Origin: a virus
Strand: one strand, 5' to 3'
DNA: 38,572 nucleotides
UHGV virus genome: UHGV-0071757
Shown: positions 16,799 through 37,243 of the stretch, in pieces
Numbering within the stretch: position 1 is the stretch's first letter
How the letters are laid out: every line of letters starts with the position of its first letter
Program-made: the position numbers and the translations under genes
Notes under the pieces: model-generated
Told to the model about the DNA's origin: nothing
What the model saw: only the letters and a program-made list of their open reading frames with translations
Database searches by the model: none

Positions 16799-19744
16799 AT
16801 GACAGACATTACAGCCAATGTTGTAGTGAGTATGCCTTCGCAACTCTTCACTATGGCGCGTTCTTTTAAAGCCGTAGCCAATGGCAAAATTTATATCGGT
16901 AAAATTGACACTGACCCGGTAAATCCTGAAAACCAGATTCAGGTTTATGTAGAGAACGAAGACGGTTCTCACATTCCTGTTTCGCAACCAATAATCATTA
17001 ACGCTGCTGGATATCCGGTATATAACGGACAGATTGCCAAATTCGTAACCGTGCAAGGCCATTCTATGGCTGTTTATGATGCGTATGGTACACAGCAGTT
17101 CTATTTTCCGAATGTGCTGAAGTATGATCCTGATCAGTTACGACAGCAATTAGAAGACCCAGATGGAGCGAATAAATACCCAAAACTTCAGATAGCAAGA
17201 TGGAGAGACAGTTATGATGTAAGAGGTTGGGGGGCTATTGGTGATGGTGTTCATGATGATACATCAGCTCTATCAGAATTACTTTCTGTTGCAACAGGTG
17301 GTGAAAAGATAGATGGGCGAGGGCTTACTTTTAAAGTATCAACTCTTCCAGATGTCAGTCGATTTAAAAATGCTCGTTTTTTATTTGAGAGAATACCGGG
17401 TCAGCCTCTTTTTTATGCTTCTGAAGATTTTATCCAAGGAGAGTTATTTAAAATTACAGATACACCGTGGTACAACGCCTGGACGCAGGATAAAACGTTT
17501 GTATATGACAATGTCATCTATGCGCCTTTTATGGCTGGAGACCGCCATGGTGTAAATAACCTCCATGTTGCATGGGTTCGCTCAGGAGATGACGGGAAGA
17601 CCTGGACAACGCCGGAATGGCTTACAGATTTACATGAAAACTATCCCACAGTTAACTATCACTGCATGAGTATGGGGGTTGTCAGAAATCGCCTTTTTGC
17701 TGTAATTGAGACGCGGACCGTGAGCGGAAATAAACTGCAGGTTGCAGAGTTGTGGGATCGCCCAATGAGTCGCAGCCTTCGCGTTTATGGTGGTATAACG
17801 AAAGCAGCAAATCAGCAAGTCGCTTATATTCGCATTACTGATCACGGATTATTTGCTGGTGATTTTGTCAACTTCTCAAACTCTGGTGTTACAGGTGTTA
17901 CCGGGAATATGACGGTGACTACTGTCATTGATAAAAATACTTTTACAGTTACGACGCAAAATACCCAGGATGTGGATCAGAATAACGAGGGTAGATACTG
18001 GAGTTTTGGTACATCATTTCACTCGTCACCATGGAGAAAAACCAGTCTTGGAACTATTCCTTCTTTTGTTGACGGAAGCACTCCTGTTACTGAGATTCAC
18101 AGTTTTGCGACGATTAGCGATAACAGTTTTGCTGTTGGCTACCATAATGGTGATATTGATCCACGCGAGCTTGGGATACTCTATTTCTCTGATGCTTTCG
18201 GTTCTCCTGGTAGCTTTGTTCGCAGACGCATACCTGTAGAATATGAGGCGAATGCATCTGAGCCATGTGTAAAATATTATGATGGCATTCTGTATCTGAC
18301 GACCAGGGGGACATTAAGTACTCAACCCGGTAGTTCATTGCACAGAAGCTCTGATTTAGGTACATCATGGAATTCTCTTCGCTTCCCAAATAATGTTCAT
18401 CACTCAAACCTTCCTTTTGCCAAAGTTGGCGATGAGCTGATTATTTTTGGCAGTGAGCGCGCATTTGGTGAGTGGGAAGGAGGAGAACCTGATAACCGTT
18501 ATGCAGGAAATTATCCAAGAACATTTATGACCAGAGTTAACGTCAATGAGTGGAGTCTGGATAATGTAGAGTGGGTTAATGTTACTGATCAGATTTATCA
18601 GGGCGGAATAGTTAACTCTGCGGTTGGTGTTGGTTCAGTTTGTATCAAAGACAACTGGCTGTACTACATTTTCGGTGGGGAAGACTTTCTAAACCCATGG
18701 AGCATAGGGGATAACAACAGAAAATATCCTTATGTTCACGATGGTCACCCGGCTGATTTGTATTGTTTCAGGGTGAAAATTAAACAGGAAGAATTTGTTT
18801 CAAGGGATTTTGTCTACGGAGCCACTCCTAACAGAACGCTTCCTACTTTTATGTCGACGTCAGGCGTGAGGACGGTTCCTGTACCCGTTGATTTCACAGA
18901 TGATGTTGCCGTCCAGTCACTGACTGTCCATGCCGGTACATCAGGACAAGTTCGCGCGGAAGTCAAACTTGAGGGTAATTACGCCATTATTGCGAAGAAA
19001 GTACCGTCTGATGATGTTACCGCTCAGAGATTAATCGTTAGCGGCGGTGAAACAACGTCTTCAGCAGATGGCGCAATGATAACGTTGCATGGTTCCGGAA
19101 GCAGTACTCCACGTCGCGCGGTATATAACGCACTCGAACATCTTTTTGAGAACGGAGATGTTAAACCTTATCTTGATAATGTAAATGCTCTTGGTGGTCC
19201 GGGAAACAGGTTCTCGACAGTTTATCTTGGCTCCAATCCTGTGGTTACCAGTGACGGAACATTAAAGACAGAGGCGGTCTCTCCTGACGAAGCATTGCTG
19301 GATGCCTGGGGTGACGTCAGGTATATCGCTTATAAATGGCTGAACGCTGTCGCTATAAAGGGGGAAGAAGGGGCGAGGATACATCATGGTGTAATCGCGC
19401 AGCAACTTCGTGATGTTCTTATTTCTCACGGACTCATGGAAGAAGAAAGCACAACATGCCGCTATGCCTTTCTTTGCTATGACGATTATCCCGCAGTATA
19501 TGATGACGTCATTACTGGCCAAAGGGAAATACCGCTGACTGATAATGACGGGAGCATCATTGTTGATGAGGATGATAATCCAGTGATGGTAATGGAAGAC
19601 ATCATTGAGCGCGTTGAAATAACGCCAGCAGGATCTAGATGGGGGGTCAGACCTGATCTCTTATTCTATATCGAGGCGGCATGGCAGCGCAGAGAAATAG
19701 AAAGAATAAAAGCTAGGTTAGACTTAATAGAAGGGAAGCACTAA
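16799..19744 (+). CDS. tailspike: P22-like head-binding domain + sialidase-like (endosialidase) domain + C-terminal intramolecular chaperone domain
   Basis: 981 aa. N-terminus [11 protein letters not shown]...[21 protein letters not shown] like P22 gp9. Two Asp-box motifs ([16 protein letters not shown]). C-terminal ~150 aa resemble autoproteolytic chaperone domains of endosialidases and tail fibres. Confidence 0.85.
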
Positions 19745-19897
19745 ATGTTTCGTTGGCGTCAAAAATATGAACTGCTCACATAAAGAAGTAAGTACATTGG
19801 CAAAAAACATTGACGTCAACGAAATTAAATATAAAAATTTAAATGCTTTTTAATGACAAGAAAAGTAACTAGTGGTAAAATAACGTAGGATACTAAT

Positions 19898-20639
19898 ATG
19901 TCAAGACTCAAGACTCAAGACTCAAGACTCAAGACTCAAGACTCAAGACTCAAGACTCAAGACTCAAGACTCAAGACTCAAGACTCAAGACTCGTTTTCC
20001 GTTGATGATAATGGGTCAGGTAATATTTTTGTATGTGGAGATCTTGTAAATAGCAAAGAGAATAAAGTTCAGTTCAATGGAAACAATAACAAACTTATTA
20101 TAGAAGATGATGTTGAGTGTCGATGGCTTACCGTAATATTTAGGGGTGATAATAATTACGTAAGAATACATAAAAACAGTAAGATTAAAGGTGATATTGT
20201 CGCAACAAAAGGTTCAAAAGTTATTATCGGTAGAAGAACGACAATAGGTGCAGGTTTTGAAGTCGTCACTGATAAGTGCAATGTTACAATTGGCCATGAC
20301 TGCATGATAGCAAGAGATGTTATTTTGCGTGCATCAGATGGGCATCCTATATTTGATATTCATAGCAAAAAAAGGATTAATTGGGCAAAAGATATCATTA
20401 TATCTAGTTACGTATGGGTAGGGAGAAATGTCTCTATAATGAAAGGGGTATCTGTTGGAAGCGGATCTGTCATTGGGTATGGGAGTATTGTAACTAAAGA
20501 TGTGCCATCTATGTGTGCAGCAGCCGGTAATCCAGCAAAAATAATAAAAAGAAATATAATATGGGCAAGAACGGATAAAGCGGAGCTAATTAGTGATGAC
20601 AAGAGATGCTCCAGCTATCATGCGAAGCTCACGCAATAA
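19898..20639 (+). CDS. neuO: phase-variable polysialic acid O-acetyltransferase NeuO-like; out of frame (OFF) in this sequence
   Basis: ATG 19898 is followed by 13 AAGACTC heptads encoding RLKTQDS repeats. The ATG frame stops at TGA 20003-20005. The hexapeptide-repeat acyltransferase body (frame ending 20639) lies in a different frame from the ATG. Confidence 0.85.
19903..19993 (+). repeat. (AAGACTC)x13 heptanucleotide tandem repeat
   Basis: Counted directly: 91 nt, 13 perfect 7-nt units starting 5 nt after the neuO ATG. Confidence 0.95.
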
Positions 20640-20700
20640 ATATAAAACATCATGCAGACATATTACCAATATTAATATAAGGTAATAAAAATATAATTTA

Positions 20701-20727
20701 CAAAAAAGCCCGTTGGAAGCGACGGGC
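20701..20727 (-). terminator. hairpin terminator oriented for minus-strand transcripts
   Basis: gcccgt/acgggc stem. The U-tract is only on the minus-strand reading (plus strand has an A-tract 5' of the stem). Confidence 0.4.
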
Positions 20728-21016
20728 ATTAACCGCGGTAATGGATAAATTATTAATGTTTTTAGATTGTGAACGATATCATATTGTGCGGAAGTAGTGA
20801 AGTAACCATGTAAAATGATTGTTTCATAGCCTATGAGACACACAAGGCTTTGTGCTCTTCTGTGGATGTGTGGCTACATGTTTGAAGATCGTTGTGCCGT
20901 ATTTGTGACATACACATGGCAACATCATGCCTCAACTTTCTGTTTGTGCCATCAACTATAGATTAGTGAATGCGGTTAATGCTTGCTAAAACAGATAGTT
21001 ATGATTGGTGCTACAG

Positions 21017-21062
21017 ATTCGTAATGCGAAGGTCGTAGGTTCGACTCCTATTATCGGCACCA
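21017..21062 (+). other. att site: 3' 46 nt of a tRNA-Thr(CGU) (thrW-type) gene, partial, not a functional tRNA
   Basis: attcgtaatgcgaaggtcgtaggttcgactcctattatcggcacca has anticodon loop CGT, T-arm and acceptor 3' strand plus CCA. The 5' acceptor strand needed for a complete tRNA is absent upstream. Confidence 0.8.
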
Positions 21063-21567
21063 TTCTAATGTCTCCCCAAGTCTACTCAAGTATTTAAAAA
21101 CCTCTTATAATCCGCATGTTAGCGCCCCTTTTAGTCTTTTGACGTCTACTTAAGTACCCCAAAATCTACAGTCAATTGGGGGTACTTTTGGGGGTATTTG
21201 CTGTTCGGTTTAGTGGAGGTACCCCCAAGTGAAACTCAATGCCCGTCAAATAGACACTGCCAAGCCAAAAGAGAAGGCTTACAAGCTGGCTGATGGTGGT
21301 GGTCTGTATCTCCTGGTAAAACCTAGTGGAGGAAAATATTGGCGCTTCAAGTATCGTGTAGCTGGTAAAGAGAAGCTGTTAGCACTAGGTGTGTATCCTG
21401 AAGTTACCTTGGCTGATGCTCGTGCAAAACGTGAAGAAGCTAAAAGGGGTATCGCTGGGGGTATCGATCCGATGGAAGCGAAACGAGAGGAAAAGATTGC
21501 CCGGGAAACGCAGTTAAACAACACCTTCAAAGATATTGCCCTTGAGTGGCACAGCAGCAAATTAAAA
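21047..21567 (+). repeat. direct repeat copy A (att core + int promoter + first ~112 codons of int)
   Basis: About 90% identical by eye to 38013-38519. Contains GGGGGTACTTTTGGGGGTAT-type motifs. Confidence 0.85.
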
Positions 21568-22443
21568 AAATGGTCTGCTGGTTATGCTTCAGACATCCTC
21601 GAAGCCTTCAACAAAGATGTGTTCCCTTACATTGGCAAAAAACCAATCGCCGAAATCAAACCACTTGAACTGCTGAATGTGCTGCGGCGCATCGAGGGGC
21701 GCGGTGCTACCGAAAAAGCCAAAAAAGTGAGGCAGCGATGCGGGGAAGTTTTCCGCTATGCAATTGTCACTGGACGTGCTGAGTATAACCCTGCACCGGA
21801 TCTCACCAGCGCGATGCAAGGTCATGAATCTAATCATTATCCTTTCCTCACAGCCAAAGAATTACCTGATTTTTTCAAGGCATTGTCCAGTTACTCAGGA
21901 AGTGCATTGGTTGTTATGGCGGCTCGTCTACTGATTATCACCGGTTTGCGGACTGGCGAACTGCGCGGTGCATTATGGGATGAAATCGATCTCAACAAGG
22001 CTATCTGGGAGATACCTGCTTCACGGATGAAAATGCGTCGCCCTCATGTGGTGCCTTTGTCTAAGCAGGCTCTTTCGCTTATTGGGCAGATTAAAGAATT
22101 AACTGGCAATTATCCGCTTATGTTTCCCGGCCGTAATGATCCAAGGAAAACAATGAGCGAGGCTAGCATAAACCAAGTATTTAAACGCATCGGCTATAAC
22201 GGAAAGGTTACTGGTCATGGATTCCGGCACACCATGAGCACCATTTTGCATGAGCAGGGCTATAACACCGCGTGGATAGAGACACAGCTTGCACACGTCG
22301 ATAAAAACTCAATTCGTGGCACATACAACCATGCGCAATATCTGGATGGTCGCCGGGAGATGCTCCAGTGGTATGCCGACTATATGGATTCGCTCGAGCA
22401 TGGCGGTAACGTGGTGCATGGCAAGTTCGGAAAATGTGGATGA
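21229..22443 (+). CDS. int: P4-family tyrosine integrase
   Basis: 404 aa, GTG start. N-terminal arm-binding-type domain (GGGLYLLVKPSGGKYWRFKYR) and C-terminal catalytic residues (HGFRHT ... RGTYNHAQY). Directly downstream of the tRNA fragment. Confidence 0.9.
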   Translation: MKLNARQIDTAKPKEKAYKLADGGGLYLLVKPSGGKYWRFKYRVAGKEKLLALGVYPEVTLADARAKREEAKRGIAGGIDPMEAKREEKIARETQLNNTFKDIALEWHSSKLKKWSAGYASDILEAFNKDVFPYIGKKPIAEIKPLELLNVLRRIEGRGATEKAKKVRQRCGEVFRYAIVTGRAEYNPAPDLTSAMQGHESNHYPFLTAKELPDFFKALSSYSGSALVVMAARLLIITGLRTGELRGALWDEIDLNKAIWEIPASRMKMRRPHVVPLSKQALSLIGQIKELTGNYPLMFPGRNDPRKTMSEASINQVFKRIGYNGKVTGHGFRHTMSTILHEQGYNTAWIETQLAHVDKNSIRGTYNHAQYLDGRREMLQWYADYMDSLEHGGNVVHGKFGKCG

Positions 22444-22565
22444 CTGGTTGCGTATACAGTAGTAGACTTTGAGCGACGAAAGAAAAGGCTGTGTCTAGGG
22501 TCGCTCCCGAAAATCCGTACACCTCGACGGACTGGTACAGCCACTACAGTAGAGGACGCTGAGGT

Positions 22566-23369
22566 GTGCGTATGATTGATATTCATGCCGAATTAAACGA
22601 ATACAAAAAAGATTTTATTTCTTTACGTGAATTTCTTGAGGTCGTGCTTAAGGTCGCTGGTGATGATTATGATGTTTCAGATGTCATAACTTGGATACTC
22701 AGGAGAATAAGCGGAGAACATATCCGCCTGTACACAGTAAATGAATTTAAGCTGTTGGAATCTTTTTGTAACCCGTATCGGGATGAATTTGATTATGATG
22801 TTCTTTATAGAAATCTGAATGCGGTTCGGAAACGTGGTTGTTTACCTGGTGAGAGGGATGAAAATGGTTTTCTGGTGTCCGGTTATTGGGAAGATCCCGA
22901 ATTTGAGAACATTGGATTTATAAGGGGTGAAATTTTCGCAATTTTTCCCGATGTCCTTGACGCGTTAACGAAGCTGGAAGGCGCTAACTCTTCTGAAAAT
23001 GACGAGGCACAAGGACGCGATATTGAAAAGAAAGAGTTGCGTACAGAGGATGATTTATTATCCCAAATCGCAATGCTGGAAAAAGAAAACGCAGAGTTAA
23101 GGGCAAGGATAGAGCAGTTAGAGCAAGAGCGCCCGATACACTTATATAAATACTGGGATAAAGACCCATTAGCTAAGGCTATTGAGATTAGAAACAGAGA
23201 GTGGGCCAATTACGATCCAGAAAATGATTTTGCCACCAGGGGAAATCAAGAAGCGATAACCAGGGAGCTTAAGCAGTGGGGGGCAAGTAATGCACTTGCA
23301 ACGCTCATAGAGAGGACTGCCTGCCCTATTAACCGAGACAACAGCCAAAAGAACGCAAAGCCGGATTAA
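22566..23369 (+). CDS. hypothetical protein with coiled-coil segment
   Basis: 267-aa ORF (ATG at 22572 is better placed after GAGGTG). Coiled-coil LLSQIAMLEKENAELRARIEQLEQE. No recognisable catalytic motif. Confidence 0.55.
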   Translation: MRMIDIHAELNEYKKDFISLREFLEVVLKVAGDDYDVSDVITWILRRISGEHIRLYTVNEFKLLESFCNPYRDEFDYDVLYRNLNAVRKRGCLPGERDENGFLVSGYWEDPEFENIGFIRGEIFAIFPDVLDALTKLEGANSSENDEAQGRDIEKKELRTEDDLLSQIAMLEKENAELRARIEQLEQERPIHLYKYWDKDPLAKAIEIRNREWANYDPENDFATRGNQEAITRELKQWGASNALATLIERTACPINRDNSQKNAKPD

Positions 23370-23383
23370 CGCACCATACCGCA

Positions 23384-23530
23384 TACCCTGAGGGTGATTT
23401 ACTGTTACCCTGAGGGTATTTTTTTATCTTCCCCGTCAATTTTACCATCACCCTTAGGGTAGATTTCCTCCCGATTACCATCACCCTTAGGGTTAATTTC
23501 CTTCCGGTAACCATTAGGCCTGAGGGTATG
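23384..23530. repeat. five copies of ACCCT(G/T)AGGGT-type motif upstream of alpA
   Basis: Copies at about 23384, 23406, 23450, 23483 and 23517 in the intergenic region. Likely protein-binding sites. Confidence 0.6.
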
Positions 23531-23596
23531 AAAATATTCGTTATTTCTGTGCCAGGATTACCTCGTCAAATTGAGTAGACGTTATGAGGTAAATAT

Positions 23597-23794
23597 ATGT
23601 CAAATACGCTTATTCGTTTAACAGAAGTTCAGCGTAGAACTGGATATAGCAAGGCATGGATTTATCGCCTTATGGGGCAAGGTAAATTTCCTGCATCAGT
23701 TAAAATTGGCTCGCGAGCTATTGCTTTCGTTGAGAGTGAAATTGACGAGTGGATTAATCAGCGTATTGCGGAATCACGCGGAACAGCTACCTGA
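23597..23794 (+). CDS. alpA: AlpA-family transcriptional regulator (excisionase-like HTH)
   Basis: 65 aa. LTEVQRRTGYSKAWIYRLMGQGKFPASVKIGSRAIAFVESEIDEWI is the AlpA/Vis-type signature. SD GAGGT upstream. Confidence 0.8.
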   Translation: MSNTLIRLTEVQRRTGYSKAWIYRLMGQGKFPASVKIGSRAIAFVESEIDEWINQRIAESRGTAT

Positions 23795-23871
23795 TTAAAT
23801 GGCTACGGGGCTATTGCCCCCAGCTATCCACCAGCAAATAAAAGTAACTTAATTCGATAGCAGGAGTTTTT

Positions 23872-24672
23872 ATGAAATTTCCAAAAACGCCCGTACAGGG
23901 GCGGGGCTTCGTTCGGCCTGAAAACCAGAATCTGCAAAATTTCGGCGAAATTATCCCGATTATTTCCGGCGTTATTGGCGGGAGTGAAACCACTATTGTT
24001 AGCGCCAGAGCGTTACATAAGGCGTTAGGTGTAGGGCGCGTTTTCCGTTCGTGGATCAAGGGGCGCATTGAAGAATACGGGTTCACGGAAGGCGTGGATT
24101 ATGAGGTTGTTGAATATTTGAGCCGACCCGATCCGGTGAGCGCAAAATCTCGCCAGCAAACCGCTCTTGAGTACATCATCACAGTGAACATGGCGAAAGA
24201 ACTGGCGATGGTCGAACGTACCGAACAGGGCCGCGCCGTTCGCCAGTACTTTATCAAATGCGAGGAGGAGCTACACAAGGTAGCGCCAGTGCGTTCCGCA
24301 GCGTTACGCCGGGAACTGAAAGCCCGTATCTCCGTTGCCAGCTACTTTAAGCCGATGTGTGCCGCGCTGGAGGCGTACCGGGCTGAACTGGGTAAAAACA
24401 CACTCCAGCACCACTACACCACGGAAGCCAATATGCTGGCGCGTATCGTGCTGGGTGGCATGACTGCAAAACAGTGGACGCAGGCGAACGGCATCACAGG
24501 CGAACCACGCGACCACATGAGCACGTTGCAGCTTGAGCACCTTTCTTACCTTGAGCAGAGCAATATCACGCTGATTGAGTTAGGCCTGGACTACCACCAG
24601 CGGAAAGCTGAATTAATTCGTCTTTCGCAGCGTTGGTTAGCCCGTCGCATGGAGGAAAACAGCCATGTGTAA
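23872..24672 (+). CDS. AntA-like antirepressor-domain protein
   Basis: 266 aa. Motif ARALHKALGVGRVFRSWIKGRIEEYGFTEGVDYEV resembles the AntA/AntB N-terminal domain as I recall it. Confidence 0.55.
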   Translation: MKFPKTPVQGRGFVRPENQNLQNFGEIIPIISGVIGGSETTIVSARALHKALGVGRVFRSWIKGRIEEYGFTEGVDYEVVEYLSRPDPVSAKSRQQTALEYIITVNMAKELAMVERTEQGRAVRQYFIKCEEELHKVAPVRSAALRRELKARISVASYFKPMCAALEAYRAELGKNTLQHHYTTEANMLARIVLGGMTAKQWTQANGITGEPRDHMSTLQLEHLSYLEQSNITLIELGLDYHQRKAELIRLSQRWLARRMEENSHV

Positions 24673-25344
24673 CGCTCTGACCGTTACAAAAAGAGAAAGC
24701 GCCCCGTTGCCGGAGCGCCTTTGTGAACGAATAGCCTACTGCGCCATATTGCTTACTGTCTACGAGGCAGATTATAGCGTTGTGGTCGCACAGAGTGAAG
24801 GCGCTGATCACCGTTACTACAGCACGCCAGAAATGCAGAATATTTTGCTGCAAAATGTCGTTGGTCACGCTGTCCGGAAAGCAAAAAATTTTGCTGGTGG
24901 CGCGACTGATGCGATTTTGTCAGGTCGCAAGGTGATGATCAATCTGATGTCTAATTTCGTTCTGGATAAAACAAAGGCGACCGCAGAGGGCCACCAGTGG
25001 GAAAGCTACACACTTGAACACATCGCCAACAATGCCAGATTTGCGGCTGGTGGGCAATGTGATCAGTGTGTTGGCTTGCTGGTGGGCTATTCCTGCTCTT
25101 TAACATTGCCATGCCGCGATGTTTTCCAGGTATGCGACCCCATTTTTGTGCGCCTGTACTCTTTAAGGAATTTCTCAAGGATAAACGCACAGGGCGCGAA
25201 TCTGTCTGACTCATATTCGTACGTTATCTTTCTGCGCTGTCTTTTCCGTGCCGGTGATGGTGTATTGGTCGATTCTTTGTTGGTCATTCTGTGTACCTGT
25301 AAAGCAATGCGCCGGAGTTCCTCACACCACGGCGATGATAGTTA

Positions 25345-25650
25345 TTATTCTGATTCTTTGGCCTTGCGGCGCTGGAGTTCTTCACGTGCGACGGTGACGA
25401 GCTGCCCGATCTCCTCGACAGCTTTGACTCCGATTTTTTCCACCTGCGCCAGTGCATTGAGCGAAGAAACCAGGGGATTTTCTCCGCTTCCTTCTGCCTG
25501 GCGGCGGGCGATCTCACCACGCATGGCGGTTACTATGAATCCGGCGTTGCTTTCGCCGTCCAGTTTTACGGATTCCATGCCTTCAAAAGCATCATGTGGG
25601 ATACGAATTGAAATCTGTTTTGATTTGTCGTTGATAGTGTTTTTTGCCAT
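25345..25650 (-). CDS. putative ribbon-helix-helix transcriptional repressor
   Basis: Start taken at the ATG with SD TAGGAGA 7 nt upstream (MAKNTINDKSKQISIRIPHDAFEGMESVKL...). Beta-strand/helix pattern typical of RHH, helical C-terminus. Divergent from the downstream operon. Confidence 0.6.
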   Translation of the reverse strand: MAKNTINDKSKQISIRIPHDAFEGMESVKLDGESNAGFIVTAMRGEIARRQAEGSGENPLVSSLNALAQVEKIGVKAVEEIGQLVTVAREELQRRKAKESE

Positions 25651-25672
25651 GTGCATTCTCCTAAACAAAAGA

Positions 25673-25748
25673 TGTGATTCAGTATACACAAAAAAGAATC
25701 ACAAAAAATACTTGACCTGTGATTCAGTTAAATTTAATTTAAATCACA
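25673..25748. promoter_or_regulatory. two palindromic operators (TGTGATTCAG-N-GAATCACA) in a divergent promoter region
   Basis: O1 25673-25702 and O2 25719-25748, with a TTGACC -35-like hexamer between them. Located between the RHH gene and the 25838 operon. Confidence 0.55.
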
Positions 25749-25837
25749 CCTCAGTAAGAGGATATAAACGACAACGCCCCGAACTGTTTGCGGCAGTAGC
25801 GGGGCGTCTAACCAAACCGTTAAATGAGGTAACGATT

Positions 25838-26203
25838 ATGGCTGGGGCACAGCATACCCAAACTCACCCTAAATTTATATACACCTTCTTGGCGGTGCAC
25901 CGTGATTGCATGGCTGACGGTAAAAACACTGTTCATGTAGCCGCCGATACGCTGGTTGATGCCTGCGAGATGCTCAATGACATGGGCTATATCTCGGCAA
26001 CATGGAAAGGGCGCGAAGAAAACACGTTGTTTATTCAGAAATGCGAAAACAATTTTATCTGGCGTTTTATCGCCCTGAGTACGGCACAACCGCGCGTGAT
26101 TCACATCGAGGCCACCAGCGAACAGGAAGCACGCCAGCAATCTCCTGATGGCTGCGTGATGGTATTCGCTGCCCGTATTCGCCAGGAGGTGGAGCATGTG
26201 TAA
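25838..26203 (+). CDS. hypothetical protein (first gene of replication/regulatory operon)
   Basis: ATG 25838 with GAGG SD 8 nt upstream, 121 aa. It is the in-frame 3' part of the 512-aa ORF in the track. Confidence 0.55.
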   Translation: MAGAQHTQTHPKFIYTFLAVHRDCMADGKNTVHVAADTLVDACEMLNDMGYISATWKGREENTLFIQKCENNFIWRFIALSTAQPRVIHIEATSEQEARQQSPDGCVMVFAARIRQEVEHV

Positions 26204-26420
26204 TGCAACATGGCCTGATGCAGCGGTAGACGCTATCAAAACGCTGATGGATTCACTTATTGAGATTTCTGCTATCGCTGGTGTGGCGCATAAACACGCA
26301 GCCAGAGAATCAGAATGCATCTCCCATTATTTAGCATTTGTGCAGCTGAAAGCCGATCAGGCACTGGATAAGGCCGGAAAAATTATCATGGCTGATGTAC
26401 AGGAGGTGCACCATGCATAA
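26196..26420 (+). CDS. hypothetical small protein
   Basis: 74 aa. Start overlaps the upstream stop (ATGTGTAA). Confidence 0.45.
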   Translation: MCNATWPDAAVDAIKTLMDSLIEISAIAGVAHKHAARESECISHYLAFVQLKADQALDKAGKIIMADVQEVHHA

Positions 26421-26778
26421 CCTGTCAATTTCTGACCTTAACAGCATTCAGTTTGACGAGATATTTTCCGGGCAGCTACTGGTCAACGTGGAGAATGGAC
26501 GCGTGGTAAGTAATTATCACCTGCCGGATGGTGCAATTGCCGGAAGCGTTGAAGCATTGCTGGAACTGGCGGAACGTGCGCGACTGATTAAGCCGTCAAC
26601 GTGCCATCACGATGATGATCTGCATTTTACCGGGTGTATGGTGAGTCACTACGAAAACGGCGTTGAAGTATCCTGCGAACGTCTGCGTGATGATTGCTGT
26701 TTCGGCACACTGCCGGAATTTATCGAATTGCTGACCAGTTGCGGTTATCAGGTCATTCAGGGGGGTAAACATGCGTGA
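26413..26778 (+). CDS. hypothetical protein
   Basis: ATG 26413 with AGGAGG 7 nt upstream. Overlaps the previous stop (ATGCATAA). Confidence 0.55.
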   Translation: MHNLSISDLNSIQFDEIFSGQLLVNVENGRVVSNYHLPDGAIAGSVEALLELAERARLIKPSTCHHDDDLHFTGCMVSHYENGVEVSCERLRDDCCFGTLPEFIELLTSCGYQVIQGGKHA

Positions 26779-27004
26779 TGATCGTTTTAATTCCCTGAAA
26801 CAGGAGTTTGATGGCGCACCGGAAGATACATCGGGCGCATTGTTGAGCATTGCTGACATGATGAAAGCTGCATATTTTCTTATCAATACCATTGGCTACA
26901 AGTCAGAGGGTGAAATGATTCTTAGTATTGCGTCGGACTATGCTGAATATGTGGCAGAGACGCGTTACAGAAGAAAATCTCTGGAGGATGTAAGCCATGC
27001 ATAA
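26771..27004 (+). CDS. hypothetical small protein
   Basis: 77 aa. Start overlaps the upstream stop, suggesting translational coupling. Confidence 0.5.
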   Translation: MRDDRFNSLKQEFDGAPEDTSGALLSIADMMKAAYFLINTIGYKSEGEMILSIASDYAEYVAETRYRRKSLEDVSHA

Positions 27005-27197
27005 TCATGAAGCGCATGTACCCGTAGTGCTTAATGTGCCAGATGATTTCACCGGACGCGTGCTGGTTTACCTTGATAAAGAAAAAGTGAAATCACAATG
27101 CCGACTGAAAAGTAATGAGATTGTGGGTTCTCCTGAATTTTTTTCTGAACTCTGTATTCGTGCAGAAATAAAACCGGAACTGCTGACAGGAAAATAA
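26997..27197 (+). CDS. hypothetical small protein
   Basis: 66 aa. Start overlaps the upstream stop (ATGCATAA). Confidence 0.45.
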   Translation: MHNHEAHVPVVLNVPDDFTGRVLVYLDKEKVKSQCRLKSNEIVGSPEFFSELCIRAEIKPELLTGK

Positions 27198-27201
27198 AAC
27201 C

Positions 27202-27492
27202 ATGAAAAGGAAAAATTCTGGCTTTACTGCCAGCGGTCTCTCTCGGCCTGAAATCAGACACGGAGATATTTACCGCGACACCAGACGTGGGGGACGAGTG
27301 GTTATTCGTCACGTTACGCCAGGCAATATCACCTACCGCCGTGAGGCTTACGAATATGACTGCGTAATGCCGCGCCGTCAGTTTGAGCGTGATTTTATTC
27401 TGGTGGAAAACAAACAACAGGCAGTGGCGAGACGTGCAGCCACGAATATTAAAAAAATCCGGGCAATGTTGGTTGCGGGAGGTAAGAAGTGA
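27202..27492 (+). CDS. small basic protein, possibly DUF4222-like
   Basis: 96 aa. RGGRVVIRHVTPGNITYRREAYEYDCVMPRRQFERDFILV resembles small proteins found upstream of primases in P4-like islands (recall, low confidence). Confidence 0.5.
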   Translation: MKRKNSGFTASGLSRPEIRHGDIYRDTRRGGRVVIRHVTPGNITYRREAYEYDCVMPRRQFERDFILVENKQQAVARRAATNIKKIRAMLVAGGKK

Positions 27493-29294
27493 AAAACGCA
27501 CCGAATTTAAAATATCAGCCGAAGGATAAATTCACCGAGGTAATCATTTTTGCCGGGACGGATGCTTACGCCCATGCTCAACACTGGATTGAAAGCGAAG
27601 GACGAAAACACGGCGATAACGTGCCTCCTGTTTACCTGGGGCCAAAGCAACTGGCAGACCTGGCGAATATCCGCATTGTCGACGATGAACGCCGCTTTGC
27701 GCGTGTCTATCTCGCGGGGGAGATAGAGCCAATCCAGATCAATGCTATTGCTGAAAAGCTGGCGCTGGCTGGTGTACAGGACGCGAAATTATACAAAGGT
27801 ATCACCGACCGGGAGCCGGAAAACTGGCGCGACTACCTGCAACGGATCCGCGAACAGGCAGAGAGTGGGGAAGTTTCAGCGATGAAATTAGCCACAAAAA
27901 ATATTGACCTATCCAGGCCAGCACTAAATCAGATGGGAGCCAGCCAGAGAGGGGAAGTGTTACTTGAATATTATGGAAGAGCACTGGCTATAAATGATGA
28001 TTCTGATGTAGTTCACCATTACAACGGAATTGTCTGGGTGCCTGTATCTGATAAGGAACTCCAGCGGTCTATGGCGAAGATTTTTATTGATGCTGGAATC
28101 AGTTATTCGCAAAACGCCATTAAATTTGCCGTAGACACAATGAAATTGAGCCTGCCTGTTATGGGCGGGGCAGACAGGAATCTTATTGGATTCAGTAACG
28201 GGGTATTTGATACCCGGACGGGAAATTTTCGGGAGCATAACAAAAATGACTGGTTGTTAAATGCCAGTGAATTACCGTTCAGCCCACCAGCAGAGGGGGA
28301 AACGCTGGCAACACATGCGCCGAATTTCTGGAAGTGGCTGCGTCGTTCGGTGGCAGATAATGATCGTAAAGCTGATCGCGTACTGGCGGCATTATTCATG
28401 GTGCTGGCGAACCGGTACGACTGGCAGTTATTCCTTGAGGTAACAGGCCCAGGCGGAAGCGGTAAAAGTGTGATGGCTGAGATTTGTACCATGCTGGCGG
28501 GTAAGGCCAACACAGTATCGGCAAGCATGAAGGCTCTGGAAGACGCAAGGGAACGCGCGTTAGTAGTTGGCTTTTCGCTGATTATCATGCCGGATATGAC
28601 TCGCTACGCTGGCGATGGTGCAGGAATTAAGGCAATTACTGGCGGCGACAAGGTGGCAATTGATCCGAAACATAAAGCCCCCTACTCCACACGTATTCCG
28701 GCAGTAGTGCTTGCGGTAAACAATAACGCCATGTCATTCAGTGACCGAAGCGGGGGGATCTCGCGTCGTAGGGTGATATTTAATTTCTCTGAGGTCGTAC
28801 CGGAGAACGAACGCGATCCCATGCTGGCGGAAAAGATAGAAGGCGAACTGGCGGTAGTGATTCGCCATTTGCTAACACGATTTACCGACCAGGACGAAGC
28901 TAAAAGACTACTTTATGAGCAGCAAAAATCAGAAGAAGCGCTGTTGATAAAGCGCGAAGGTGATTCACTGGTGGACTTTTGCGGCTATCTGATGTCGTTG
29001 GTTAAATGTGAAGGAATGATGGTGGGCAATGCGGAAATAGTGCCATTTAGCCCGAGGCGATACCTGTATCATGCTTATTTAGCCTATATGTCAGCGCATG
29101 GCCTGGGAAAACCAGTATCACTGACACGCTTTGGTACTGATATGCCAGGAGCTATGGCGGAATACGGAAAGGAGTATAAGCGGGCTAAATGCACTAAAGG
29201 CCCGGATAAAGGGCGAGTGATAACAAATGTTCTGTTAGATGATGATGCTGATGGCTGGTTGCCAGCAGCTACAGGGATTAACGACAGAACATAA
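27489..29294 (+). CDS. primase/helicase-like replication protein (D5-N/P4-alpha C-terminal type, P-loop NTPase)
   Basis: 601 aa. Walker A TGPGGSGKS preceded by a region resembling D5_N/primase C-terminal domains. Followed immediately by the iteron array. Confidence 0.75.
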   Translation: MKNAPNLKYQPKDKFTEVIIFAGTDAYAHAQHWIESEGRKHGDNVPPVYLGPKQLADLANIRIVDDERRFARVYLAGEIEPIQINAIAEKLALAGVQDAKLYKGITDREPENWRDYLQRIREQAESGEVSAMKLATKNIDLSRPALNQMGASQRGEVLLEYYGRALAINDDSDVVHHYNGIVWVPVSDKELQRSMAKIFIDAGISYSQNAIKFAVDTMKLSLPVMGGADRNLIGFSNGVFDTRTGNFREHNKNDWLLNASELPFSPPAEGETLATHAPNFWKWLRRSVADNDRKADRVLAALFMVLANRYDWQLFLEVTGPGGSGKSVMAEICTMLAGKANTVSASMKALEDARERALVVGFSLIIMPDMTRYAGDGAGIKAITGGDKVAIDPKHKAPYSTRIPAVVLAVNNNAMSFSDRSGGISRRRVIFNFSEVVPENERDPMLAEKIEGELAVVIRHLLTRFTDQDEAKRLLYEQQKSEEALLIKREGDSLVDFCGYLMSLVKCEGMMVGNAEIVPFSPRRYLYHAYLAYMSAHGLGKPVSLTRFGTDMPGAMAEYGKEYKRAKCTKGPDKGRVITNVLLDDDADGWLPAATGINDRT

Positions 29295-29319
29295 TACGAA
29301 ATTTATAAGCTGAAACGTA

Positions 29320-29660
29320 AAGGTAGACGGTTGGTAGACAGATTCACTTAACCCTCTACCAACCATCTACCAATTAATATTTTGAATTATAAAGATATTT
29401 TCAATGTGGTAGAGAGGTAGACAGTTATTTCTATATTCCTAAACCACGGGGGGTATATAAAAAACAGATAGTTAAGGGGGCATTTTTTAAATTTCTCTTT
29501 TAACTGTCTACACTGTCTACCATTTAGTAAAAATCATTAATTATCAATGTATTAATGCGGTAGACCGTTGGTAGACAGTTTGCAGATTGTTTTTTTGTTA
29601 TGTGTTAATAACATTAAATAAATCAATCAATTATATCGGTAGACAGTTGGTAGACAGTTG
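29320..29660. repeat. putative island replication origin: ~12 GGTAGAC(N)G iterons in both orientations with AT-rich spacers
   Basis: Copies at about 29322, 29333, 29354(rc), 29364(rc), 29408, 29416, 29505(rc), 29514(rc), 29558, 29568, 29637 and 29648. AT-rich stretches lie between clusters. Confidence 0.6.
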
Positions 29661-29665
29661 TAACG

Positions 29666-30208
29666 ATGGGGCAAAGCATGACTAAGCTGACCATTAACAG
29701 AAAACCAAAAGGTATTTACGGCACGCCGCAGAAAACGACGCAGGCGGCACAGGAGCAGGATAAAACCACATCGGCGCATAAAGTGATGCCCGGTAACCAG
29801 AAAGCGCAGCAGAAGCCTACAGGGGCGACACCGTGGCGGCATATGACCAAACGCCAGCGCAAAAACCGCAGGCGCGTTAACCGCCTCACTGAGTTGTGGC
29901 CTGACTTATTCAGCCGGGAAGCACTGAAGCCGCTTAAGGTGGGGATATTCGACGACCTGATGCAGGATCTCGCCGTCAGGGGGCTGGCATTCGGGCCAGG
30001 GGCATTGCGTGCGACGCTGGCATCTTATGCGCAGTGTCCGCGCTATTACCGCGCCTTAATGGCTGGTGGGGTACGCTACGACCTGAAAGGCCAGCCGTGC
30101 GGCGAGGTGACACCACAGGAACAACAGGACGCAGAAACGCGGCTGGTGGCGCTGAATGAGAAGCGCAAACGCCAGCGCCGGGCAGCAAAGGAGACAATAG
30201 GCGCATGA
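29666..30208 (+). CDS. ProQ/FinO-family RNA-binding protein
   Basis: 180 aa. LTELWPDLFSREALKPLKVGIFDDLMQDL...RYDLKGQPCGEV matches the FinO/ProQ N-terminal domain pattern. Basic N- and C-terminal tails. Confidence 0.7.
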   Translation: MGQSMTKLTINRKPKGIYGTPQKTTQAAQEQDKTTSAHKVMPGNQKAQQKPTGATPWRHMTKRQRKNRRRVNRLTELWPDLFSREALKPLKVGIFDDLMQDLAVRGLAFGPGALRATLASYAQCPRYYRALMAGGVRYDLKGQPCGEVTPQEQQDAETRLVALNEKRKRQRRAAKETIGA

Positions 30209-30492
30209 TTCACGACAGCAAAGCGGAAGCACTGGAAGCGCGTGGTCTGTACCGGAGAGCGGCGGCGCGGTGGGCTGAGGTCATCATGCTGGCGAATGAT
30301 GACAAGGCACGGGAACAGGCGGCAAAACGTCGCGCGGAATGTATCCACAAGGCAGCACGCCCACCAGCAAGGCAGGATAATTTCGGGGAGATGCGCGAAA
30401 CCATCAGCCGGGCACATGCCGGGATGGGATTACATCAGCCCAATGGTGAGGCATTCAGGAAATACCAAAAAAAGAACAATTGTAGTCAGTAA
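30205..30492 (+). CDS. PerC-family transcriptional regulator
   Basis: 95 aa. SKAEALEARGLYRRAAARWAEVIMLANDDKAREQAAKRRAECI resembles PerC-type activators. Overlaps the upstream stop. Confidence 0.65.
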   Translation: MIHDSKAEALEARGLYRRAAARWAEVIMLANDDKAREQAAKRRAECIHKAARPPARQDNFGEMRETISRAHAGMGLHQPNGEAFRKYQKKNNCSQ

Positions 30493-30626
30493 CAGAGGAT
30501 GGGATTCTCTTGGTTTTTTGTTGATGCTTTCTGAGGAAATCTACTACGTTGCTGAGCAGATGAATATTCAATTGCATCTGGGTTCCTGATAAGATTAATC
30601 TGAATATTTTCATTTGGAATAGGGAT

Positions 30627-31769
30627 ATGAATAAAACTTTAATTGCAACATTAGTCGGTATAGTAATGTTAACCGGATGTGGGCCAGAAGAGTTAACTCC
30701 AGAACAGAAACAGGAAGTAGCTGCTCTTAAAGCTGAACTGTCGCAAACGGAAGGTGAAATATCAGCAGCTAAGGAAGTTGACCAGCAGTTTTCTGGTGGG
30801 TTGATAAAAAATCTGACAACAGCAAGACTGGAAATATTAGGAACTAATAAAGCGCTTTTGGAACAGCGTATTAATGCTATTGAATCAGGTGCCAAAATTG
30901 ATGTTGTTGTATCTGGAGTAAAACCTGATCCTGAGCTTGCGGCTTCAATTAAAACTGAAATTGACAGCTTAGATGCAAAAATCAACGAAGCCAAAGCTGA
31001 TGCTCGTCAGTATAGTGGTGGTCTGATAAAGGTACTAAAATTATCTACTGTTGCCACTGAAGAGCAGACCATGGCAATGTTGCAGCAAAAGTACCTCACA
31101 GCCAAGTATGGCCTCGCTGAAGTTAAGCTGGCATCAGTACAAGCTAATGACGCAAAAAACAGTACTGAAACGGAAGTAACAGCCAAAAATTCCCAAGAGC
31201 AACTTCCTTTACTCCCGCCAGCGGATGGTCCGTTTGGCTTAGAAGCCGGTCTTACACAGAAAAACATCGAAGATATGATCGGTGCTAAGCTCAAGCCACT
31301 ACCAGACAGTGTGAATCTGTATACTTCTGATAAATTACCGAAGCAAAACGCAGATTTTGAAATGTATGGTTTGCTGATCTCCCCGAAAGCTGGTTTATGT
31401 CAAATACGGGCTTTAGGAAAAAATATTGATACTGATAGCTATGGATTGGCTCTTAAATCCAAGTTTGAAGAATTGAGTAATTCTTTAAGTTCTCTGTATG
31501 GAAAGGCTGATACTACAGACTTTTTGCTGGCTGGTTCAATTTGGAAAGATCCTCAGGACTGGATGAGGGGGCTAAACAAAAAAGAACGCTTCTTATCTGC
31601 TACATGGAAGGGAACAAAAGAAATACCATTAAAAAACAATATTGATACTATATCTATTGAGGCCAGAGCGAACAATTCCACTCAGGGATATGTCTATCTG
31701 CAGTACTCATTTACAAATGACGAAATTTGTCAGGCAGAAATTGAAGGGGCGAAAAAAAGTTCCCTTTAA
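30627..31769 (+). CDS. lipoprotein with internal repeat, unknown function
   Basis: 380 aa. Signal peptide plus lipobox VMLTGCG. Duplicated (Q/R)Q(F/Y)SGGLIK segments. Strong terminator downstream. Confidence 0.7.
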   Translation: MNKTLIATLVGIVMLTGCGPEELTPEQKQEVAALKAELSQTEGEISAAKEVDQQFSGGLIKNLTTARLEILGTNKALLEQRINAIESGAKIDVVVSGVKPDPELAASIKTEIDSLDAKINEAKADARQYSGGLIKVLKLSTVATEEQTMAMLQQKYLTAKYGLAEVKLASVQANDAKNSTETEVTAKNSQEQLPLLPPADGPFGLEAGLTQKNIEDMIGAKLKPLPDSVNLYTSDKLPKQNADFEMYGLLISPKAGLCQIRALGKNIDTDSYGLALKSKFEELSNSLSSLYGKADTTDFLLAGSIWKDPQDWMRGLNKKERFLSATWKGTKEIPLKNNIDTISIEARANNSTQGYVYLQYSFTNDEICQAEIEGAKKSSL

Positions 31770-31780
31770 ACAATCCGTGC

Positions 31781-31806
31781 AAAGCCCCTTAGTAAGGGGC
31801 TTTTAT
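31781..31806 (+). terminator. rho-independent terminator
   Basis: agcccctt/aaggggct stem followed by TTTT. Confidence 0.7.
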
Positions 31807-31833
31807 ATATTAATGTTCAACGTGGGGGATTAG

Positions 31834-32157
31834 ATGAAAGATAATCTAGCAAAACTAATTGAAAATACTTTAAAAGATATTCTATTAGCTAATGCTGCTC
31901 TAACATTCATTTTTGCAATACCAATGGCTATTATCAGTAGGCATGGGATGGGCATCACAATCTGGTTTATAACTGTGCTCATTGCACCTGCTCTGTGTGC
32001 AGTAGGTGCATGGCTTGTATCTCGAACATCCGGCCATGCTGAGGAGTTCTTTCATCGTCGGTGGGCTAAGCGAATTTATGTTTTTTATACTCTTGCGGCT
32101 GCCGAGTTTTTGCTTGTGTACTCAATCGCGCAAATAATGAAAAATCTGATGAAATAA
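31834..32157 (+). CDS. small inner-membrane protein
   Basis: 107 aa with 2-3 predicted TM segments (LLANAALTFIFAIPMAII, ITIWFITVLIAPALCAVGAWLV). SD GGGGGA upstream. Confidence 0.55.
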   Translation: MKDNLAKLIENTLKDILLANAALTFIFAIPMAIISRHGMGITIWFITVLIAPALCAVGAWLVSRTSGHAEEFFHRRWAKRIYVFYTLAAAEFLLVYSIAQIMKNLMK

Positions 32158-32445
32158 TTAACAAGTTATTATCATGGAGCTTGTGGCTGTTAACCTGCAG
32201 TGAGGCGACAATCGTGTATTTATAAAAACTTCCCCTTTTCACTCCCCGCAGCTTCTTCTGCTATTGCCTTTATGTTTGCATGCACCAACATCTGCCATAC
32301 CTTTGCAGAAAAATCAGAGCATTCAGTGCCGAAGGTTGGTTTATTGATGCTTTTCGTTTCATTTATTGCAATTGTCTCTGGTATCATTTCAATTTGTGCA
32401 ATAATTGCAATAATTGCAATTATTGTCATTCAGAAGGGATCATCA

Positions 32446-32612
32446 TGAAAAATCACGGAGTAAAGCCAGTTTTACTTTCCCGGAGGCAGATCGAAGCCCT
32501 GCAACGCATCCAGGACGAAGAGCGTCAGAAATCTGTGCTTGGTGTGGCACCGTCGATTCATGTTATCGCTCGGCAACTGATGGATAAGGCACTTAAAGAG
32601 GTGAGACTGTGA
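32446..32612 (+). CDS. hypothetical small protein (possible DNA-binding/antitoxin-like)
   Basis: Taken from the internal ATG 32446 of the 32280-32612 ORF, with AAGGG upstream, giving 55 aa. Basic helical segment SRRQIEALQRIQDEERQ. Confidence 0.4.
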
Positions 32613-32881
32613 AATTAAATATCAGAGTGGATAAACGCCAGCTATGGCAGAAAAAAGAGAACAGCGAGGCATTCAGGGCGTTGCTGGTGGAAAATCTTCA
32701 GCATCGGTTCAGTGGAGAGTTGCCTGATGCTCTAGGGAAGAAACTGGAATCCCTGACGGTGGAAATTGGCGATTATGGCTTTGTTGATGTTGAAAGCACG
32801 ACTGCCAACACAGAAATCGTAAAACAGGTCGTCAATGATGTAATGAAAACCACGCTTAGCCAGCCATCCTGGCGCAACTGA
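32609..32881 (+). CDS. hypothetical protein
   Basis: 90 aa, GTG start overlapping the upstream stop (GTGA). Followed by a hairpin. Confidence 0.5.
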   Translation: MKLNIRVDKRQLWQKKENSEAFRALLVENLQHRFSGELPDALGKKLESLTVEIGDYGFVDVESTTANTEIVKQVVNDVMKTTLSQPSWRN

Positions 32882-32886
32882 ATCAG

Positions 32887-32912
32887 TAAGGGGCGGTTAT
32901 TGCCCCTTTCCT
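32887..32912 (+). terminator. putative terminator hairpin
   Basis: aaggggc/gcccctt stem. The U-tract is weak (tttcc). Confidence 0.45.
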
Positions 32913-32962
32913 CCATACCCACAACGCATTCCCTTTCCGCATGAAATTATTTTTTATCGTAT

Positions 32963-33508
32963 ATGCATGAGGTGAGCTACATGTTGATGAGTAAAGCCGA
33001 ATACGCCAAATACAAAGGCGTAAGCCGCCAGACAGTTTACGACTGGCTCGAGAAAGGCGAAGTGGTCATGTCCGGTAAAAAAATTGATGTGGAAGCGACA
33101 GAGCAGCGGAACAGCCCACCAGCACAGGGGAAAGACACCATTTCTGAAATGTGGCCAGAAAGAACGCTGGAAATGACATGGGGCGAGTTCTGGAAAGCAG
33201 TTAAGGCCAGAGACGGTAAAATTCCTGCGCCAGTAACGGACGAGGGCATACAGCAGCGTGTGCTGTATGCAGCCGGGGAATTAGGCTGGGAAGTGCACTT
33301 TCTTGATGATGGTGCTATCTGCCTTGAGGATGATGAAGGGCAGCATTACTTTGAAAAATACAATTTGCGAGGTAATGCCAGGCTGGCAATTCGTATGCTG
33401 CGTTGCGAACTCTGCTATGTTGCAGGTGATTATCCCGATGAACCGGAATCATGGAGTGAAGCCGGGTTAAACGCCCTGGCTGAGTGGGAAAAATCAGACC
33501 ATCAATGA
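32963..33508 (+). CDS. helix-turn-helix DNA-binding protein
   Basis: 181 aa (a likelier start is ATG 32981 after GAGG). N-terminal HTH SKAEYAKYKGVSRQTVYDWLEKGEV. Ends 3 nt before the repeat region. Confidence 0.65.
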   Translation: MHEVSYMLMSKAEYAKYKGVSRQTVYDWLEKGEVVMSGKKIDVEATEQRNSPPAQGKDTISEMWPERTLEMTWGEFWKAVKARDGKIPAPVTDEGIQQRVLYAAGELGWEVHFLDDGAICLEDDEGQHYFEKYNLRGNARLAIRMLRCELCYVAGDYPDEPESWSEAGLNALAEWEKSDHQ

Positions 33509-33510
33509 CA

Positions 33511-33810
33511 TCAAAAAGTGTCAAGTTGAGCAGCTTGCCAGCTTGCCAGCTTGCCAGCTTGCCAGCTTGCCAGCTTGCCAGCTTGCCAGGTTGACACTTT
33601 ACACTCTGAACGCGAAAAAGTGTCAACCTCGCTGTAAGCCCCGCAATTACTGGGTTTGTGCCAGATTTACCACGTCAAAAAGCCGAAAAAACCGCGAAAA
33701 ATGTCAAGTTGCCATGCTTAGAAATGCTAAGGTTTTTCGCGAAAAAGTGTCAAGTGTGTCAACCTGCGATATTAAGATTTATTAAGGTCTTAAGCCGGAA
33801 AGTGTCAACC
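33511..33810. promoter_or_regulatory. array of dispersed (A)AAGTGTCAA(G/C) motifs (about 7 copies, one inverted)
   Basis: Motif copies near 33517, 33590(rc), 33619, 33700 (variant ATGTCAAG), 33746, 33755 and 33801, several with a CGCGAAAAA prefix. Confidence 0.6.
33531..33586. repeat. (CAGCTTGC)x7 octanucleotide tandem repeat
   Basis: Counted directly: 7 perfect 8-nt units (56 nt), flanked by inverted half-sites AGTGTCAA (33516-33523) and TTGACACT (33591-33598). Confidence 0.95.
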
Positions 33811-33929
33811 AGCCCCCTAAGATTTCCTAAGGTGTGATTGGACGTGCTGTACCCTTCTTGTCGCAATGTGGATGAATGACTATAGTGCTGGTAGCTTTGA
33901 CAGCAGAATCAGATTACTGAAGGAAATGT

Positions 33930-34514
33930 GTGATGAGTTTTTTTAGTCTTTATGGGAAAGAACTATTTTCTTTTTTTATAACGATTTTAACATGGATACT
34001 GAATAACAGATTTAAAAGCAAGGCAAAGTTATCCTATGGTTATCAGCATGGATTTACTTTTCTTCTCAATGAACCCTTACGGAATGCCAATGGTGAGGTA
34101 ATATCTAATTCACAGTTGGTGTATACACGATCTATTATTCTTGTTAATGAAGGGCGAGAAAGTGCTACTAATATCTCATTGGTTTTTAACTATAAGCCAA
34201 TGCATATTAATTTTTGGCCTGTCCACCATTTTGAAGAAAATATTGAACAGGATGGTCGCTATATTATCAAGTTTGAAAGCCTTGCACCTGGTGAGTCTAT
34301 TCAATGTGAAATATTATCAATAAATAGAGAAGTTCCAAGTATTCTATCGATAAGATCTAAAGAGTGTGTGGCTGAGCCAGTGAATATCGTGATGCAAAAA
34401 TCGATTAGTAATATTGCCTTACGTTGCTATCAATTATTAATACTTCTTGGAACTGGCACATTAACATATTTAATTATCGTTATTCTGCAATGGTTAGTCA
34501 CTAAAACGGGATAA
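33930..34514 (+). CDS. AT-rich membrane-anchored protein, unknown function
   Basis: 194 aa. N-terminal TM (LFSFFITILTWIL) and C-terminal TM (LLILLGTGTLTYLIIVILQWLV). Markedly AT-rich codon usage by eye. Confidence 0.6.
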   Translation: MMSFFSLYGKELFSFFITILTWILNNRFKSKAKLSYGYQHGFTFLLNEPLRNANGEVISNSQLVYTRSIILVNEGRESATNISLVFNYKPMHINFWPVHHFEENIEQDGRYIIKFESLAPGESIQCEILSINREVPSILSIRSKECVAEPVNIVMQKSISNIALRCYQLLILLGTGTLTYLIIVILQWLVTKTG

Positions 34515-34536
34515 TCCATTGTATTGAACTTATTAA

Positions 34537-34746
34537 TTGGATATGAGTGCTGATAGGAAACCTATGACCATCACCGAAGCCGATATGCTGGAGATGATCC
34601 GCAGCATTGCCGGAATCAAACAACCAGCAAGCAAAATTAACAGGTGTTCAGCGCCTGTTTCCGTTGTGCTGCAACAGGAACGCCACCAGCGGCGGGAAAA
34701 CGAAAAGGCGTACCAATGGACGAAGCCAAACAAGTTACGGCGTTAA
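34537..34746 (+). CDS. hypothetical small protein (uncertain)
   Basis: 69-aa ORF followed by a good terminator. No motif. Confidence 0.35.
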   Translation: MDMSADRKPMTITEADMLEMIRSIAGIKQPASKINRCSAPVSVVLQQERHQRRENEKAYQWTKPNKLRR

Positions 34747-34752
34747 TTAGGG

Positions 34753-34778
34753 ATGCGGGCTGGGATAGCCCGCATTTT
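34753..34778 (+). terminator. rho-independent terminator (possibly bidirectional)
   Basis: atgcgggct/agcccgcat stem followed by TTTTG. Lies between convergent ORFs. Confidence 0.6.
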
Positions 34779-34780
34779 GC

Positions 34781-37239: not shown

Positions 37240-37243
37240 TTAA

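Follow-up and report, generated by a model that had tools for sequence, protein, structure and literature searches.

A neuO phase-variation locus with a 13-copy AAGACTC tract downstream of an endosialidase tailspike gene

An acetyltransferase reading frame which is preceded by a start codon, a Shine-Dalgarno-like sequence and a run of perfect heptanucleotides, and which is out of frame with that start codon, raises the question of which gene it is and whether it has been switched off reversibly or has been lost. Such a locus is found at positions 19898 to 20639 of UHGV virus genome UHGV-0071757 (the whole stretch of 38,572 nucleotides that was analysed is referred to here as the window).

Repeat tract, reading frames and identity of the gene

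The 5' end of the gene was found to consist, on the plus strand, of an ATG (19898-19900), the dinucleotide TC (19901-19902) and 13 AAGACTC units without a mismatch (19903-19993), after which the sequence continues as GTTTTCCGTTGATGA; a Shine-Dalgarno-like AGGA was read from the sequence of the same strand at 19887-19890, 7 nt upstream of the ATG. A tract that begins two nucleotides past the start codon is how neuO's poly-psi domain, its phase-variation switch, has been defined (PMC3046976), and in the record of CUS-3, a phage from E. coli RS218, the same tract is annotated as 'poly(psi) domain; 19 copies of heptanucleotide repeat AAGACTC' of neuO. Tandem Repeats Finder (TRF) returned a period of 7, 13.3 copies, a 100% match and a score of 186, the figure being 13.3 rather than 13 because the TC before the first unit extends the register. 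As AAGACTC occurs at just one further position of the 38.5-kb window (7659), 13 perfect tandem copies are far beyond chance. The initiation context TACTAATATG is kept in CUS-3 and in EC21GDE043, a complete genome which also carries 13 copies. Codon 2 is TCA (serine) in the window and TTA (leucine) in those two sequences; elppa4 and phage phiv205-1 have TCA as in the window, as judged from identical flanks or from the TC-extended repeat register, and it is the C of the TC at 19901-19902 that lengthens the register by two bases.

Translation from ATG 19898 would give a peptide of 35 amino acids (MSRLKTQDS...RLVFR) ending at a TGA at 20003-20005, and this shortened OFF-state frame occupies 19898-20005 of the plus strand. 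The body of the acetyltransferase lies in a different frame, which is open from 19884 to a TAA at 20637-20639. Between 19884 and 20304 that frame contains no ATG, GTG, TTG or CTG, only ATT, ATA and ATC codons, and its first conventional start is the ATG at 20304. When neuO was rebuilt in silico with 8 to 21 AAGACTC units, a single ORF from ATG to TAA was obtained at each copy number divisible by three (237 aa with 9 units, 244 with 12, 251 with 15, 258 with 18 and 265 with 21), and the remaining copy numbers gave peptides of 28 to 66 aa. Natural ON alleles match the simulation, the annotated CDS being 258 aa long in phiv205-1, with 18 copies, and 265 aa long in elppa4, with 21; in the simulation and in these annotated alleles alike the full ORF is found solely at multiples of three. 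A sequence-only reading of the window had placed 13 perfect units at 19903-19993 behind ATG 19898, a TGA at 20003-20005 after 35 codons and an out-of-frame body ending at 20639 with no start before 20304, and had expected 12 or 15 copies to restore a single ORF of about 245 aa; the recount and TRF reproduced the tract exactly, the coordinates of the stop hold, the codon scan agrees and the restored lengths are those given above.

The NeuO catalytic body, of 215 amino acids and a stop codon, was located at 19992-20639 (plus strand, off the ATG frame at 13 copies) and is of the left-handed beta-helix O-acetyltransferase type (Pfam Hexapep, 4.1e-11). Compared with residues 30-244 of PDB entry 3JQY ('Polysialic acid O-acetyltransferase', NeuO), the post-repeat protein was identical at 214 of 215 positions (E=1.9e-142), the sole difference being one substitution, I for V. 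The residues His147, Trp171 and Arg137, which are discussed as catalytic in the paper on the NeuO structure (PMC3046976), align identically with 3JQY, and the body downstream of the tract is a hexapeptide-repeat NeuO body with its catalytic residues in place. At the DNA level positions 19600-20800 match CUS-3 at 99.6% identity and phiv205-1 at 99.9%, and identities of the locus to CUS-3 and CUS-3-like prophages lie between 99.6 and 100%. The gene is identified by its sequence as neuO itself, the polysialic-acid O-acetyltransferase gene of E. coli K1 prophages, and not merely as neuO-like; the description of it as a neuO-like acetyltransferase in the earlier reading was right and, in view of the match to 3JQY and the DNA identity to CUS-3, understated.

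In OFF alleles annotation pipelines call an ORF of 111 aa from the internal ATG (20304-20639, plus strand), which has no Shine-Dalgarno motif before it and is unlikely to be a genuine product. In EC21GDE043 the only call made by PGAP is a 111-aa 'acyltransferase' (WP_011478229.1); positions 2205-2540 of that locus (L003) correspond to 20304-20639 of the window, and the RefSeq entry carries no pseudogene or frameshift flag, so that the phase state is invisible in the annotation. The 111-aa ORF is an artefact that the OFF state creates in annotation, and it gives no evidence for a shorter protein. In practice the phase state of neuO should be taken from the repeat count, since OFF alleles are mis-called in this way.

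Phase state and copy number across genomes

Full-length translation of neuO needs an AAGACTC copy number that is a multiple of three, and slipped-strand mispairing changes the length of the tract (PMC3046976, PMC13001214, PMC8653822), most commonly by the gain or loss of one unit (PMC3046976). This literature bears out the appeal of the sequence-only reading to the slipped-strand phase variation known for K1 capsule O-acetylation, and its view that the allele was captured OFF stands, 13 not being divisible by three and the frame ending after 35 codons. It is held with very high confidence that the locus is neuO, a translational phase-variation (contingency) locus, and that its 13 copies constitute an OFF genotype.

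Slipped-strand mispairing at replication would gain or lose whole units of 7 nt, each step would shift the reading frame by one, and solely a tract whose copy number is divisible by three would join the ATG to the catalytic body. At 13 units translation would break off after 35 codons and no NeuO would be made, leaving the K1 capsule essentially without O-acetylation; the gene would be turned ON by a change to 12 copies (loss of one unit; 4 heptads) or to 15 copies (gain of two; 5 heptads). Three units encode one RLKTQDS heptad, and catalytic efficiency climbs linearly as the heptad count goes up (PMC3046976). Given this published trend, the 12- and 15-copy ON alleles, with no more than 4 and 5 heptads, are probably relatively weak. 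A further layer of control over neuO is provided by the DsdC regulator (PMC9659370). Experiments on other strains have shown tract length to shift inside clonal populations and capsule O-acetylation to shift with it (PMC13001214, PMC8653822), little O-acetylation being obtained from tracts that are not divisible by three. K1 polysialic acid is assumed to be the substrate, the capsule genes (kps/neu) lying outside the window, and we infer that this strain does switch and that its host is K1; for a K1 host the endosialidase tailspike is no more than indirect support.

Most of the neuO locus was found in 157 of 5,426 complete E. coli genomes. Copy number was derived from the span between the two flanks, which were aligned as separate pieces; 88 of the 157 records were listed, and after three with spans that were not whole units had been set aside 85 were counted. 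The counts derived from spans agree with direct counts for CUS-3 (19), EC21GDE043 (13), elppa4 (21) and phiv205-1 (18), and the count for strain MS7163 equals the published 21 (PMC13001214). Copy number is polymorphic between isolates: these 85 listed records span 8 to 60 copies, and lengths of 2 to 93 copies have been published (PMC3046976). An ON number, divisible by three, was present in 29 of the 85 (34%), in agreement with the 34.4% ON found among 64 genomes in a 2026 survey (PMC13001214). The three residue classes held 29, 22 and 34 of the listed records, no class being excluded, and no enrichment of ON alleles was observed among the matches listed (29/85 against 1/3, P =0.91). The 85 include duplicate assemblies (UTI89 four times and F11 twice); without them 29 of 81 (36%) are ON, and the conclusion is unchanged.

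The OFF call applies to the assembled consensus copy number alone. Cultures are mixtures: fragment analysis of MS7163 assigned 93% of cells to the modal 21 repeats, with minor fractions of 1.9% (20 repeats) and 5.4% (22 repeats) (PMC13001214). Mixed lengths of this kind, and the standing of tandem repeats as a classic spot for assembly miscounts, speak for an artefact of assembly or consensus in which the majority allele has another length, perhaps one divisible by three, and the strain is not OFF. We consider this unlikely, as the tract is just 91 nt long with unique flanks and can be spanned by ordinary reads, all 13 units are perfect with the flanks intact, and, with roughly two thirds of complete genomes likewise OFF, such a count is what would be expected. 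A miscounted tract would in any case alter the state and not the mechanism.

It is less likely still, indeed very improbable, that the enzyme is made whatever the repeat number, by downstream initiation or by ribosomal or transcriptional slippage, and that the tract merely tunes the amount. NeuO without repeats has been reported as active (PMC3046976), so initiation immediately 3' of the tract would yield a working enzyme, but the body frame offers no start codon between 19884 and 20304, and a product begun at ATG 20304, which lacks a Shine-Dalgarno motif, would be without the initial 104 residues of the beta-helix, among them Arg73 and Lys95, which have been proposed to bind polySia. A strain with 38 repeats still had 3% O-acetylated polysialic acid, compared with 44% in a 39-repeat variant isolated after four passages (PMC8653822); the residual 3% speaks for such production, but the two values fit a true switch with a small switched subpopulation. 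That neuO is a decaying pseudogene, permanently dead, can hardly be credited: it is frameshifted as it stands and pipelines call just the 111-aa fragment in such alleles, but the body is free of stop codons and indels, with a single difference from the crystallised enzyme in 215 residues, none of the repeat units has a mismatch, a change of one unit restores the ORF, and conservation extends to the start codon and its Shine-Dalgarno context. Reversible translational phase variation is the preferred reading, and no feature of the sequence is at odds with it; OFF is the commoner state and the usual finding, and the 13-copy locus is already known and a textbook neuO switch.

Neighbouring genes and integration site

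The first 17 kb of the window consist of P22-like late genes, and CUS-3 covers 55% of window positions 1-20860 at 97.8% identity, a mosaic of the kind usual for the group. Directly 5' of neuO lies a siaK1-type gene for an endosialidase tailspike of 981 aa (16799-19744, plus strand), in which the Pfam domains End_beta_propel (8e-233), End_tail_spike, Head_binding and Peptidase_S74 were identified. The order siaK1-neuO is identical to that of CUS-3, and as in that phage a P22-like (Lederbergvirus) late region leads into the endosialidase tailspike and then neuO. In a consensus scan the best sigma-70-like promoter candidate upstream of neuO was ATGACA-17-TAAAAT with a TG (19853-19881, plus strand), and a second candidate was located at 19810-19838 of the same strand; the scan found 8 promoter-like sites against 5.8 expected from shuffled sequence, which is not significant, and no promoter is claimed. 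On the minus strand at 20708-20727, 3' of neuO, a GC-rich hairpin followed by a T-run resembles a terminator; the sequence is common to CUS-3, where a convergent int lies beyond it.

The window parts from CUS-3 at about 20862. In CUS-3 and EC21GDE043, neuO is followed by intS and then by the argW end of the prophage (the attL core is annotated in CUS-3 and a tRNA-Arg in EC21GDE043); neither an intS-type integrase adjoining neuO nor integration at argW, as in CUS-3 in the strict sense, was found in the window. Alignment with the intact thrW of elppa4 showed instead that the neuO prophage ends in an attR made up of the 46-nt 3' end of tRNA-Thr (thrW) at 21013-21058 on the plus strand; ARAGORN predicted no complete tRNA at the prophage end, where only this fragment is present. 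The junction between neuO and the thrW fragment is the same through 21063 in elppa4, VTB96933v, GPEC856 and GPEC403-625, with neuO flanks that are 100% identical, and is also present in strain E1 at 96.7%. Tract lengths in the first four are 21 copies (in agreement with a direct count), 24, 23 and 38, respectively. The elppa4 genome has an intact tRNA-Thr and a site-specific integrase adjoining proA, 41.7 kb upstream of the neuO-thrW junction; the elppa4 prophage is integrated at thrW with neuO at its attR end and the integrase at its far end. The arrangement resembles that of phage P22, which likewise integrates at thrW.

The window continues beyond the thrW fragment into a separate integrative element of approximately 17 kb at the same thrW site (21063-38023, boundaries taken from repeats). 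A P4-type tyrosine integrase (21229-22443, plus strand; Pfam Arm-DNA-bind_3, Phage_int_M and Phage_integrase) belongs to this element and is not part of the switch. The element also encodes an AntA-like protein (23872-24672), a D5-type primase-helicase (27489-29294), a ProQ/FinO-like protein (29666-30208) and, in addition, several ORFs that matched no Pfam family, among them one of 532 aa (35641-37239). A partial att repeat near 38010-38028 closes the element, and a second copy starts at about 38024; the 5' region of the integrase recurs at 38143-38442 (99% identical), which indicates that elements are arranged in tandem. The element found 3' of thrW in elppa4, VTB96933v, GPEC856 and GPEC403-625 differs from that of the window, and that of E1 is partly alike. 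The exact junction of neuO, thrW and the integrase at 21229 was absent at high identity from complete E. coli genomes, the best match being E1 at 96.7%.

Further repeats were noted within the element. The octamer CAGCTTGC occurs seven times, perfectly, at 33531-33593, an intergenic position just 3' of the ORF at 32963-33508, and the array sits among repeated GTGTCAAC motifs (33517-33815); the length at this spot differs in related loci of 166 E. coli genomes, and this tract may vary in copy number too. Between the primase-helicase and ProQ/FinO-like genes (29350-29660) the 11-mer GGTAGACAGTT and its reverse complement are clustered in both orientations; these clusters look like iterons and are possibly a candidate replication origin of the element. 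A 33-nt unit is present in 2.2 copies (87% match) at 23442-23514, between the ORFs at 22566-23369 and 23872-24672.

On an evenly balanced judgement, siaK1-neuO is carried here not by canonical CUS-3 at argW but by a P22-like prophage of the thrW site, with its integrase at the opposite end and in tandem with another thrW-targeting element, a lineage that is perhaps undescribed. Full-text literature searches returned no description of it, and the papers found on CUS-3 and thrW concern, by their titles and abstracts, other phages and intS. If the lineage is undescribed, it would show that a phase-variable cassette for capsule modification passes from one phage backbone and integration site to another, and screens for neuO which rely on a siaK1-int or argW context would miss such strains. 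The thrW context shows that neuO also occurs outside argW prophages. This variant integration context is the only mildly unusual point of the locus, and a minor curiosity.

Comparison with known systems

The closest known system is that of CUS-3 (E. coli K1 RS218, CP000711), with which the window shares AAGACTC repeats two bases after the ATG, the same Shine-Dalgarno and ATG context and the same divisible-by-three logic, as well as the same enzyme (one amino acid difference in 215) and a neuO directly after the endosialidase tailspike. The two differ in copy number, with 19 in CUS-3 and 13 in the window, although both leave a remainder of one on division by three and both are OFF, and in what follows neuO, which is intS and an argW att site in CUS-3 and a thrW attR fragment without an adjacent phage integrase in the window. 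The biological weight of the neuO locus is already established: O-acetylation of the K1 capsule alters antigenicity, resistance to K1 phages and to neutrophils, serum sensitivity and Siglec recognition (PMC13001214, PMC9659370, PMC8653822).

The nearest solved relative after NeuO is OatWY of Neisseria meningitidis W-135/Y (PDB 2WLC, E=3.7e-31), a member of the same left-handed beta-helix family, and OatWY and NeuO share conserved active-site residues (PMC3046976). OatWY is nevertheless distant in sequence, and no N-terminal repeat domain of the AAGACTC type was found described for it.

The tract itself has counterparts in other repeat-based contingency loci, such as the CAAT repeats of Haemophilus lic1 and the CTCTT repeats of Neisseria opa. 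These loci and neuO have in common an intragenic repeat near the 5' end, with a unit length that is not a multiple of three, at which slippage toggles translation. In neuO, unlike lic1 and opa, the unit is a heptamer and the repeats are translated in the ON state into a domain that grades activity (PMC3046976), so that the neuO switch also acts as a dimmer.
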